Shown here in pieces: positions 963 through 4,507 of a DNA stretch of 4,507 nt. Below the pieces are notes generated by a model. That model did not search any database and was not told the origin of the DNA. It worked only from the letters and a program-made list of their open reading frames with translations. Source of the DNA: a virus (Duplodnaviria; Heunggongvirae; Uroviricota; Caudoviricetes); IMG/VR virus record IMGVR_UViG_2660238573_000008. One strand, written 5' to 3'. Made by a program: the position numbers and the translations under genes. Position 1 is the first letter of the stretch; each line of letters begins with the position of its first letter.

Positions 963-1149
963 ATCCTCACCCCGATGTACACAGATGGTGCAATATGTTT
1001 GAAAAGATCGGAGTCTATGGGGTAGTTTTTATAGCAAACGTTGTTCTCAACGGCGCTAAAAAACAGACACATTAAAAATGTGGGTAATTATTTTAAAAGA
1101 AAATCATATATTAAATAATAATACGAGATATGTTTTCATATTTAGTGTA

Positions 1150-1171
1150 CTGTATACGGCCATTTATACAG
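1150..1171. repeat. Inverted repeat CTGTATA-N8-TATACAG immediately upstream of the zinc-ribbon ORF RBS
   Basis: Read directly: CTGTATA (1150-1156), cggccatt, TATACAG (1165-1171). Could be an operator or an RNA hairpin next to the RBS; function unknown. Confidence 0.35.
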
Positions 1172-1180
1172 GAAAAGCCT

Positions 1181-1351
1181 ATGTCAGAACGTAAAGACTC
1201 AAAATCACGCCGTAATTATCTCGTTAAATGTTCCTGCCCAAACTGCACCCAAGAGTCAGAACACAGTTTTTCAAGAGTACAAAAAGGTGCCCTTTTGATC
1301 TGCCCTCATTGCAACAAAGTATTCCAGACAAATCTTAAAGCTGTAGCTTGA
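1181..1351 (+). CDS. Small zinc-ribbon protein, 56 aa, two CxxC motifs
   Basis: ATG at 1181 with AGGA 7 nt upstream; translation MSERKDSKSRRNYLVKCSCPNCTQESEHSFSRVQKGALLICPHCNKVFQTNLKAVA contains CPNC and CPHC spaced as in a zinc ribbon. A hairpin follows at 1417-1430. The ORF track's longer form from 1130 has no RBS. It may correspond to a small zinc-binding protein annotated in K-12 Qin, but I cannot verify that from memory. Confidence 0.5.
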   Translation: MSERKDSKSRRNYLVKCSCPNCTQESEHSFSRVQKGALLICPHCNKVFQTNLKAVA

Positions 1352-1410: not shown

Positions 1411-1433
1411 AAAAAACCCGCCTGAGCGGGTTT
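1411..1433. terminator. Bidirectional intrinsic terminator
   Basis: A-run (1411-1416), stem CCCGC (1417-1421), loop CTGA, stem GCGGG (1426-1430), then TTT. On the minus strand the hairpin is followed by TTTTTT, so it is stronger for leftward transcription (cspB side) than for rightward transcription from the zinc-ribbon ORF. Confidence 0.6.
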
Positions 1434-1714: not shown

Positions 1715-1930
1715 TTAATCAGTAATTATGACATTTGCTGCTGCAGGACCTTTAGCACCACTCTCTACAGAGAAGGTAACCTTTTGACCTTCAAATAAGG
1801 TTCGATAATTATCATTCTGAATCGCAGAAAAATGCACAAACACATCTTTACTACCATCAACAGGAGAAATAAAGCCAAAACCTTTATCAGCGTTAAACCA
1901 TTTTACTAAACCAGTCATTTTATTTGACAT
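1715..1930 (-). CDS. cspB: Cold-shock protein CspB (CspA family), 70 aa
   Basis: Translation [71 protein letters not shown] carries the RNP1 (KGFGFI) and RNP2 (VFVHF) motifs and matches my recollection of E. coli CspB. RBS AAGGA upstream of the ATG at 1930. Confidence 0.93.
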
Positions 1931-2230: not shown

Positions 2231-2443
2231 TTGTCCCGTAAAATGACAGGAATTCTCAAAACCTTTGACGGCAAAAGCGGCAAAGGTCTTATAACCCCAT
2301 CCGATGGTCGTATCGATGTCCAGCTTCATGTTTCAGCGCTCAATCTCCGCGATGCAGAAGAAATTACCACCGGATTACGCGTGGAATTTTGCCGGATAAA
2401 TGGTCTGCGTGGACCATCAGCTGCCAATGTTTACCTTTCATGA
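2231..2443 (+). CDS. cspF: Cold-shock-like protein CspF, 70 aa, apparent TTG start
   Basis: Translation [70 protein letters not shown] matches the divergent CspF/CspH subfamily, in which the aromatic RNP1/RNP2 residues are replaced. The ORF starts at TTG 2231 with AGGA 6 nt upstream; the first ATG (2243) has no RBS at a usable distance. Confidence 0.88.
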
Positions 2444-2865: not shown

Positions 2866-3618
2866 TTATCTCGTCACCTTTCTCAATTGTGCTTCAGCGT
2901 AAGATTCCTCCTGCCAGCACTTTGTAACCAGTTTATCAATGACATTTGCATATCCTTTATACCACTGATAATCACTCAGGTCCGGTACCAGCTTCTGGAC
3001 ATGATGCCGCGCCAGTGTGGTTGGTAAACGACTAAACCGTTTTCCATTGCAACGCCCACAAATCTTATAAACAGGTGTGCCATGAAGCCGGGTCCTTTTT
3101 TCATCCAAGACAATACCTTTACCCTTACACCCTCTGCACGCTGTGCTGACTTCTCCCTTACCATGGCAATGCTGACATAGTTCCTTCACCCACTCTTCTT
3201 TGATAACAGATTCCCCGCTTCTGGAGTGTTTCACCACTTCGCGCAATACATTATGAAATCCAGTACCAGCACAATGCTCACAACGAGCCTTACTTGCCGC
3301 AGACCTGGAATAATCAGCAAAGGCAAAATTCACAAGGTAAGGAATAATCTGTAGCCGGGTTTCTTCACTCAATTTATTCAATGTCGGGTTATCCAGTGCC
3401 ATCGCGTAATTGAGCAGACCTTCAATCGCAAACTGAGGATCCTGAACACCAACTTTTGCCAGGAATAAGGCAAACCCAAGCGGTGCTTTCGACTGCACCA
3501 TCCCCTGCGCAGCCATCACATCCGTAATCGTTAAACCACCAGAGCCTGTCGCCGGTGCGTCATCACTCAATTTTGGAGATTTTGGGGAGTAATATTTTGG
3601 TAAGGCTTCAAGGTTCAT
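2866..3618 (-). CDS. quuQ: Late-gene antitermination protein Q (phage 82 type), 250 aa
   Basis: 250-aa ORF with RBS GGAG 7 nt upstream of the ATG at 3618. The sequence carries four CxxC motifs (CEHCAGTG, CQHCHGKG, CRGCKGKG, CGRCNGKR). I recognise the N-terminal region and overall length as Q82-like antiterminator. Position directly upstream of the promoter/terminator module fits. Confidence 0.88.
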   Translation of the reverse strand: MNLEALPKYYSPKSPKLSDDAPATGSGGLTITDVMAAQGMVQSKAPLGFALFLAKVGVQDPQFAIEGLLNYAMALDNPTLNKLSEETRLQIIPYLVNFAFADYSRSAASKARCEHCAGTGFHNVLREVVKHSRSGESVIKEEWVKELCQHCHGKGEVSTACRGCKGKGIVLDEKRTRLHGTPVYKICGRCNGKRFSRLPTTLARHHVQKLVPDLSDYQWYKGYANVIDKLVTKCWQEESYAEAQLRKVTR

Positions 3619-3631
3619 GCTCGTTCTCCAC

Positions 3632-4507
3632 TTACGCCAGTACGCCTATTGCCAGCGCACGATCGATAAAACGAAATATCAGCTCCAGCTGGGAGCCATA
3701 CTTCTCTTCAAATGCCACGGTATCCGCATGCAGCTCGTCGTGATGCTTTCTGCACAAAGGCAACACAAAAAGGTCATGCGCTTTTGTACCCATTCCCCCC
3801 TGACCGTGGCCTATCAGGTGGTGGGGATCATCAGCAGGTTTTCCACAACATGCGCACGGCTGCGTCTTAACCCAGCGCGTGTACTTTTCATTAACCCAGC
3901 GGTGACGTTTTGGGCGTAACATAAAAGACTCCGGCGACTCCGGATCCACTTTCAGCGCCAGCACCTTTTTCGCCTTATCCTGGATGATGCTGGTGGCAGG
4001 AACCGAAGGCACAAGGTCACTTTCCCGGGTAACAGACGGCACAACAGGCTTCGGTAATCTCAGTGCCTTACGGGCTGCACTTTCCGGTAAGGCATCCGCC
4101 AGATCATTACGAATCAGCCACCAGCACAGTTCCGGCATTGTCACAACATGACTGTCATCAAAACCGAGATCCCGACGCACAACAGACAACACCCAGCGGG
4201 CACAGTTATCCGTTGCCATTGATTCCAGCCGTTCCGTGAACTGATCGCGCAGCTGGTTATCGCAGTGCCAGCACAGACGGATTGCGCCCGGAGCGTGTCG
4301 CATTGTTGTCATGTTCTCGCTGTGCCAGTCGGAATGAGGCCACTGGCAGCCTTTTTCACGAAGTAACCAGCTTTCAAGACATTCCACGCCACCAGCACGA
4401 CGGATCACTGCCTCATTGCGGAACACGGCCCGAACGGCAGGATCATCCGCCAGTGAACCGCCCCGGAAATCCTGGAGACTAAACTCCCTGAGAAAGAGGT
4501 AAACAGG
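3632..4507 (-). CDS. ydfU: YdfU-like prophage protein (DUF968-like), 5' end beyond the window
   Basis: The minus-strand reading frame is open from the right edge down to the TAA at 3632-3634; I translated 4427-4507 by hand and found no stop, so the GTG at 4426 used by the ORF track is probably not the true start. The C-terminal region has CACCGKPADDPHHLIGHG...CRKHHDELH, a Cys/His cluster. The stop is 13 nt before the quuQ start. Confidence 0.8.
   Translation of the reverse strand, partial: PVYLFLREFSLQDFRGGSLADDPAVRAVFRNEAVIRRAGGVECLESWLLREKGCQWPHSDWHSENMTTMRHAPGAIRLCWHCDNQLRDQFTERLESMATDNCARWVLSVVRRDLGFDDSHVVTMPELCWWLIRNDLADALPESAARKALRLPKPVVPSVTRESDLVPSVPATSIIQDKAKKVLALKVDPESPESFMLRPKRHRWVNEKYTRWVKTQPCACCGKPADDPHHLIGHGQGGMGTKAHDLFVLPLCRKHHDELHADTVAFEEKYGSQLELIFRFIDRALAIGVLA

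Follow-up and report, generated by a model that had tools for sequence, protein, structure and literature searches.

The small zinc-ribbon gene ynfU in a Qin-type prophage, with the conserved block and the Escherichia-specific palindrome upstream of it

ynfU and its closest described counterparts

The morons of lambdoid phages (e.g., stx, bor, and lom) are accessory genes inserted after Q and before the lysis genes. In Lin28 and the plant CSPs, a cold-shock domain (CSD) and CCHC knuckles of the retroviral type are fused in one chain. Small ORFs adjoining csp paralogues have also been described, namely YnfR, next to cspI, and YmcF-like ORFs, next to cspG-type genes, and YnfR-SPA rises strongly after cold shock (PMC6001520). 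The closest described system is ynfU of Escherichia coli K-12 MG1655 (b4776; 1,640,805-1,640,975), which lies between essQ and cspB in the cryptic prophage Qin. It was discovered by ribosome profiling with stalled initiation complexes (Ribo-RET), SPA-tagged YnfU being the most abundant among the newly found small proteins, and its discoverers remarked on its two CPXC zinc knuckles and on a threading match of moderate strength to PA0128 (bioRxiv 10.1101/511675). YnfU was independently detected by PIRT-seq and RiboReport, and no function has been assigned to it in the literature that we found.

The locus analyzed here lies in a 4,507-nt stretch of DNA (the window) from an IMG/VR virus record. 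A first-pass annotation of its letters had singled out a 56-aa ORF with a good ribosome-binding site (RBS) and a CxxC...CxxC pattern, all of which were present where it had placed them. By direct reading and in the ORF list, the ORF runs on the + strand from an ATG at 1181 to a stop codon at 1349-1351 and encodes MSERKDSKSRRNYLVKCSCPNCTQESEHSFSRVQKGALLICPHCNKVFQTNLKAVA, with the cysteine pairs C19-P-N-C22 and C41-P-H-C44 and an additional C17. The RefSeq CDS "putative zinc-binding protein YnfU" (WP_001405948.1) falls exactly on this ORF in a record 100% identical over this region. The region 1000-1500 was present in 1651 of 5426 complete E. coli genomes (megablast); several of the matching records were 100% identical, and all labeled the ORF ynfU.

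Among the checks that the same annotation had proposed were a homology search of the 56-aa sequence and ribosome profiling with stalled initiation complexes. The former gave matches far above cut-off to Pfam PF23499 "YnfU" (107.7 bits, cut-off 27, full-length match to positions 1-49 of 49) and to NCBIfam NF038384 (79.8 bits, cut-off 36), while the latter is precisely the published experiment in which the ORF was found (bioRxiv 10.1101/511675). Since the family scores and the identical RefSeq records that annotate ynfU at this position agree, the 56-codon ORF is ynfU, a genuine, translated, and conserved gene that is already named, annotated, and published, which the first-pass annotation had not recognized. 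Compared with the K-12 copy, the window copy has the same essQ-cspB position, the same length of 56 aa, 96% identity, and an identical upstream palindrome; the visible difference is D6N, and the window derives from the Qin-type prophage of another E. coli strain. The features of the locus are collected in Table 1.

Table 1. Positions of the features discussed, in window coordinates.
Feature	Position	Strand	Basis
ynfU CDS, 56 aa plus stop, Cys4 zinc-ribbon small protein	1181..1351	+	RefSeq, Pfam, NCBIfam, dN/dS, published translation
Shine-Dalgarno (SD) AGGA, 7 nt before the ATG	1170..1173	+	direct reading; (near-)invariance of CAGGA in 51 upstream regions
-10-like hexamer TACTGT, family pattern TAnnGT	1148..1153	+	conservation; promoter function presumed
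Weak -35-like hexamer GAGATA, family pattern RRGCWA, 17 nt above the -10-like hexamer	1125..1130	+	presumed
A-rich tract AATAATAAT, possible proximal UP-like element	1114..1122	+	presumed
Palindrome CTGTATA-N8-TATACAG (arms 1150-1156 and 1165-1171), Escherichia-specific, probably incidental	1150..1171	.	no conservation or covariation
GC-rich hairpin common to the convergent ynfU and cspB	1414..1433	.	terminator scan; inverted repeat
cspB, convergent neighbor, in the AT-rich ynfU-cspB-cspF accessory block	1715..1930	-	ORF list, annotation
cspF, third member of the recurring ynfU / cspB-like / cspF-like cluster	2231..2443	+	ORF list, annotation

We then analyzed selection on the protein in 71 distinct sequences, drawn from the genomes of about 80 enterobacterial species. 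C19, C22, C41, C44, and H28 were unchanged in all 71, so that the conservation of the CxxC pairs, on which the first-pass annotation had staked its reading, was complete; C17 was kept in 69. The median pairwise dN/dS was 0.11, and third codon positions were the most variable (48 of 49 columns), which shows that ynfU is under purifying selection. The SEHSF motif between the two CPxC knuckles was likewise invariant, and distant members keep CPxC..SEHS..CPxC. A profile search against 1.84 billion representatives returned a narrow family of 44 clusters at E ≤ 1e-3. Where the match covered the full length, the proteins were stand-alone, measured about 50-60 aa, and had the pattern CPxC..SEHS..R[VI]xK..LxCPxC..LF, and YnfU itself is such a stand-alone protein of ~55 aa with two CPxC knuckles and the SEHSF core; the longer hits comprised gene calls extended upstream, sequences that were frameshifted or chimeric, and large multi-stretch proteins.

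An AF2 model of YnfU has four strands in a zinc-ribbon layout (pLDDT 64.8). The invariant Cys4 pattern and the matches to family profiles support well the assignment to the zinc ribbons that the first-pass annotation had proposed, in which the four cysteines would bind zinc; its suggestion of a nucleic-acid-binding regulator is a guess. YnfU scores below the cut-offs of known small zinc-ribbon families, including the N-terminal ribbon of PhnA/YjdM (PF08274; PA0128, PDB 2akl) and the zinc domain of PyrI (22.4 bits against a cut-off of 30.8 in one example), and its invariant SEHSF and basic N-terminal tail are specific to YnfU rather than to small stand-alone ribbons; function is not transferable to it from the PhnA/YjdM or PyrI ribbons. 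Our best guess is that YnfU acts through zinc-dependent binding of an RNA or protein partner, in connection with the neighboring CSD proteins.

A conserved block and candidate promoter before ynfU

To compare the sequence preceding the gene, we aligned genera-level orthologous ynfU upstream regions (51 sequences). The ~65 nt before the ATG form a block that is conserved at the nucleotide level, and the genera share nothing further upstream. Within the -10-like hexamer, T1148, A1149, G1152, and T1153 were invariant, most genera reading TATGGT, and G1147, C1160, C1161, T1163, and CAGGA (1169-1173) were nearly so. G1127 of the -35-like hexamer and A1117 and A1120 of the A-rich tract were also nearly invariant, and conservation between genera stops just upstream of this tract. 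The pattern extends to homologues that match the family profile only weakly (E 4e-12 to 3e-4): four of them carry GTGTATGGT or GGTATGGTG at an equal distance, ~34 nt before the ATG, two further ones have TAnnCT variants of the hexamer, and two have GGGCTA or AAGCTA exactly 17 nt upstream of it. This 17-nt spacing is seen in the distant homologues L178 and L179.

The position of upstream terminators narrows the search for a promoter. Seven of 75 distinct loci have an intrinsic + strand terminator, with its end 83-216 nt upstream of the ynfU ATG, and the ynfU copy of a Klebsiella phage has a similar hairpin just upstream of the conserved block; the ynfU promoter must therefore lie in the short interval that remains. 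Judged from conservation and position, the block is most likely a compact promoter of ynfU together with a leader of ~20 nt. Such a sigma-70-type promoter of the gene's own would comprise the A-rich tract, the weak -35 GAGATA, a 17-nt spacer, and the -10 TACTGT, with a predicted transcription start at ~1159-1162 and a leader of about 20 nt bearing a strong SD. A search of the literature found no published transcription start for ynfU.

The candidate elements fit the sigma-70 consensus loosely. The -35-like hexamer agrees with TTGACA at only 2-3 of 6 positions, and a consensus scan, the threshold of which lay above the match of the TACTGT candidate, did not call it; the scan called instead the E. 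coli-specific TTTAAA-16-AATAAT (1092-1119) and the overlapping TTAAAA-18-AATAAT (1093-1122). As neither the conserved G at -8 nor the GTG preceding the hexamer is standard for sigma-70, the block could be the site of another factor. The first-pass annotation had suggested that the AT-rich stretch 1076-1145 may hold the promoter, which would be right for the -35-like and A-rich parts (~1114-1130); the -10-like element lies outside that stretch, within the palindrome. A Zur or Fur box in the spacer was considered and rejected by eye, the spacer not being conserved between genera.

Part of the block could in principle be coding. A longer open frame from an upstream ATG (1130-1351) contains the ynfU frame, and the true protein might begin at ATG 1130 (73 aa) or at GTG 1145 (12 extra codons), which would make the palindrome coding sequence. 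That the frame is open from 1130, and that for homologues several gene calls in databases reach further upstream, through an in-frame V-Y-G (GTG TAT GGT), speaks for this. Yet indels of 1, 2, and 3 nt between genera occur inside the block and break the frame, which rules out coding conservation of the in-frame upstream GTG; what is conserved is the nucleotide pattern TAnnGT, not a codon pattern; a strong SD precedes ATG 1181, whereas none precedes 1130 or 1145; and both RefSeq and the initiation-site profiling study give the 56-aa product. We consider the probability of a longer protein to be close to negligible, and the 56-aa YnfU is retained in what follows.

A related signal may precede cspF-like genes. 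Upstream of these genes we observed an A-rich tract, TAGCTTT, ~16 nt, GTATAGT, a leader of ~25 nt, AAGGA, and a TTG start; this arrangement (2171-2200 on the + strand, and at cspF-like genes in L082-L161) resembles the ynfU block and is missing from cspB-like genes. The pattern AGCWW[TC]-N13-16-GTAnnGT, made by hand after viewing the sequences and hence only suggestive, occurred before 10 of 35 cspF-like genes and 0 of 59 cspB-like genes, and in 35 ynfU upstream regions. An nhmmer profile of the ynfU block gave only E = 8.8 upstream of cspF, and this search thus gave no support for homology of the two promoter regions.

The palindrome upstream of ynfU

We next consider the palindrome, which the first-pass annotation had described as abutting the RBS and proposed as a possible operator or mRNA hairpin. 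It is present as described: its arms are 100% complementary with 8 nt between them, and the end of the right arm overlaps the start of the SD by two bases. Judged by dinucleotide shuffles, the chance of meeting a perfect inverted repeat with arms of 7 bp or more and a loop of 3-12 nt was P = 0.033 in the 60 nt before the ATG and P = 0.20 in the whole 218-nt essQ-ynfU spacer. The palindrome is thus mildly unusual and not compelling for a feature picked after reading the sequence.

Its conservation was examined in 80 species-level ynfU loci and 80 E. coli prophage copies. Both arms were intact in 82 of 86 Escherichia-type copies, and in the four exceptions the left arm read TAATGTATA or TAATGTGTA while the right arm was unchanged, i.e., there was no compensation. 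Among the species-level loci, the exact dyad was absent outside Escherichia and Shigella. In the 51-sequence alignment, the seven palindrome pairs were formed in 43.8% of cells versus 44.3% after column shuffling, and slid controls paired as well as the palindrome did. RNAalifold predicted 0 pairs for the 51 orthologous leaders, and an alternative ATGG/CCAT helix, seen by eye in many genera, had 0 compensatory changes and did not exceed the controls.

Could the dyad nevertheless be a DNA operator, at which a dimeric prophage or host repressor, bound across the -10/start region, silences ynfU in Escherichia lysogens? The dyad occupies a position classical for operators, reaching exactly from the -10-like hexamer as far as the SD, and its perfect arms are kept in nearly all Escherichia-type copies. 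Each half (TACTGTATA / TATACAG) equals a LexA half-site consensus. The spacing, however, is CTGT-N14-ACAG and not the CTGT-N8-ACAG of LexA; the left arm is broken in natural variants with the right arm unchanged; and other genera lack the dyad. Repressor operators, moreover, usually recur, whereas a scan of the viral collection gave no second copy per prophage among the matches listed, each contig appearing once. We judge an operator to be quite improbable. A LexA box as such was rejected: the half-sites look right, the spacing is 6 bp too long, and a pattern search allowing 1 mismatch found no site at 1150-1171.

A second possibility is an mRNA hairpin in a longer leader that starts from the AT-rich region, partly covers the SD, and tunes translation, possibly by temperature. 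The promoter-like matches at 1092-1119 and 1093-1122 would put all of the palindrome into the 5' UTR, the 22-nt hairpin taken by itself has a folding energy of -4.8 kcal/mol (z = -3.3), its 3' arm takes in the first two SD bases, and the neighboring cspB has a known RNA thermoregulator. Against this, folding in 45-nt and 75-nt contexts was ordinary and no better than shuffles (z ~ -0.8), the 51 orthologous leaders had neither a consensus structure nor covariation, just 2 of 4 SD bases would pair, and the AT-rich sequence further upstream is unconserved outside Escherichia. An Rfam search of the ynfU leader (1150-1180, both strands) gave no match at E ≤ 1, and a hairpin that gains stability in the cold would reduce translation rather than raise it. 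Translational control by this hairpin is therefore very improbable. Two broader candidates were also discarded: a known RNA family at ynfU, as only the cspB thermoregulator reaches the Rfam gathering score, and a conserved cis-regulatory hairpin, as no compensatory pairs occur across the orthologues.

With one-sided breakage, restriction to Escherichia, no covariation, and no predicted structure, neither regulatory role given to the palindrome by the first-pass annotation found support, and the palindrome is probably a lineage-specific coincidence rather than a control element. Its left arm would be largely the -10 region and its right arm the conserved leader just before the SD; because the left arm overlaps the -10, it would probably not be transcribed, and no mRNA hairpin would then form. 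In the explanation that we favor, and which very probably holds as a whole, ynfU would be monocistronic and encode a zinc-ribbon protein of 56 aa, in which two CPxC knuckles flank an invariant SEHSF. Its transcription would start from a compact promoter of its own and probably end at the hairpin that it shares with cspB, and the palindrome before the gene would be a coincidence.

In Citrobacter copies, the corresponding position directly behind the -10-like hexamer is taken by another short palindrome, TGAACGTTCA (L091, ~3950-3965) or TGAAGTTCA (L088, ~3950-3960). Dyad symmetry near the presumed start thus recurs without conservation of sequence.

The finding in itself matters little: ynfU had a name, an annotation, and published evidence of translation, and the palindrome is unlike a conserved control element. 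The remaining value of the finding lies in two modest new leads, first the linkage to csp genes across Enterobacteriaceae and at least two more distant lineages, and second the compact upstream block, which is conserved more deeply than the YnfU protein. Both leads give concrete hypotheses toward the function of YnfU, namely cold or lag-phase expression and interaction with CspB/CspF.

Linkage to cold-shock-domain genes and the prophage accessory block

In 56 of the 80 species-level loci (L082-L161), ynfU had a CSD gene no more than 1.2 kb away, in nine arrangements, and in 24 of the 80 a cspB-like and a cspF-like gene were both downstream of ynfU. The trio ynfU / cspB-like / cspF-like recurs in phage PHB10, beside an integrase gene. 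Given roughly nine csp genes per genome, the chance of finding one in a 2.4-kb window is ~0.5%, a figure to be read with the caveat that the loci are not phylogenetically independent. Distant homologues near CSD genes came from two lineages (L176 and L179): one is oriented divergently from a CSD gene that is itself paired with a YmcF-like gene, and another lies 0.8 kb from the gene for a 160-aa CSD protein. The remaining distant homologues examined had no CSD gene nearby. As a separate observation, a DUF2058 (PF09831) gene is located just downstream of two distant ynfU homologues (L170, 4030-4569; L179, 2308-2847).

We also looked for fusions of the two modules. None of the 44 family clusters contained a convincing YnfU-CSD fusion. 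In the one candidate, P0058 (186 aa), a translated cspB leader followed by the N-terminus of CspB (..VKWFNADK) runs straight into YnfU from residue 17 onward; this candidate was rejected as probably an assembly or recombination artefact, since ynfU and cspB are convergent. YnfU resembles Lin28 and the plant CSPs in that a CSD is combined with a small zinc module, but in YnfU the combination exists only as a gene neighborhood, and a Cys4 ribbon encoded by a separate gene would take the place of CCHC knuckles in one chain, so that the likeness is no more than an analogy. Likewise, YnfR and YmcF-like ORFs share with ynfU the position next to csp paralogues and have no sequence relation to YnfU.

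These likenesses allow a wider reading, in which YnfU would be a zinc-ribbon subunit, encoded separately from the CspB/CspF-type paralogues but acting together with them on RNA, and would thus form with them a bacterial, split version of the CSD plus zinc-knuckle proteins. YnfU would then be expressed from an unusually deeply conserved RRGCWA-N17-GTGTATGGT promoter, recognized by a specific factor and similar to the cspF-like signature. We regard this reading, taken as a whole, as unlikely. The ynfU-csp linkage and the deep upstream motif appear to be new, as neither was mentioned in the literature that we found, in which there was also no report of cold induction of YnfU.

Within the window, essQ (747-962) and cspB both lie on the - strand, opposite to ynfU on the + strand, which bears out the first-pass statement that ynfU lies antisense to the late operon between cspB and essQ. 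On the - strand, the hairpin shared by ynfU and cspB forms a strong intrinsic terminator of 8 pairs for cspB; on the + strand its T-tail, TTTAATATTG, is weaker by direct reading, and the ynfU transcript likely ends there. A full-length match to the Rfam cspA thermoregulator RF01766 (156.7 bits) covers the leader and coding region of cspB (1652-2091, - strand), which would place the start of the cspB transcript near 2091, with a 161-nt 5' UTR.

The GC content is 35-37% across ~960-2860 (ynfU, cspB, cspF, and ynfS) against 44-57% in the flanking phage genes, and this block sits between a Q-type antiterminator gene (2866-3618, - strand) and the holin gene essQ of a Qin-type lambdoid prophage. YnfU had no significant PHROG family match and was encoded in just 8 of 50,697 phage records, while in other genera ynfU is chromosomal and outside prophages, so that the Qin copy looks like a captured accessory cassette. 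The gene is moron-like in its position between antiterminator and holin, in its low and apparently foreign GC content, in having a conserved upstream block of its own and a shared terminator, from which autonomous transcription would follow, and in its scarcity among phages; the Klebsiella phage copy occupies the same spot, before the holin gene. Unlike morons, however, ynfU is more often chromosomal outside prophages in other Enterobacteriaceae, which makes the phage copy look captured from a host.

Several further features of the window were observed in passing. A 29-codon ORF between cspF and the antiterminator gene (2498-2587, + strand), labeled "hypothetical protein" in the matching RefSeq record, is the published YnfS (K-12 b4750). 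A GC-rich hairpin of 10 pairs (2737-2760), located ~100 nt downstream of the antiterminator gene quuQ/ydfT, was called by the scan as a + strand terminator after cspF and ynfS; on the - strand it is followed by TTTTTGTGCTTT and may also be a Q-controlled late terminator. Finally, a 90-aa ORF (160-432, + strand) matches PHROG 2411, of unknown function (E 5e-57), and overlaps by ~35 nt the 3' end of a convergent ydfR-family gene (398-744, - strand); in one matching genome, an IS66-family element lies just upstream of this ORF.
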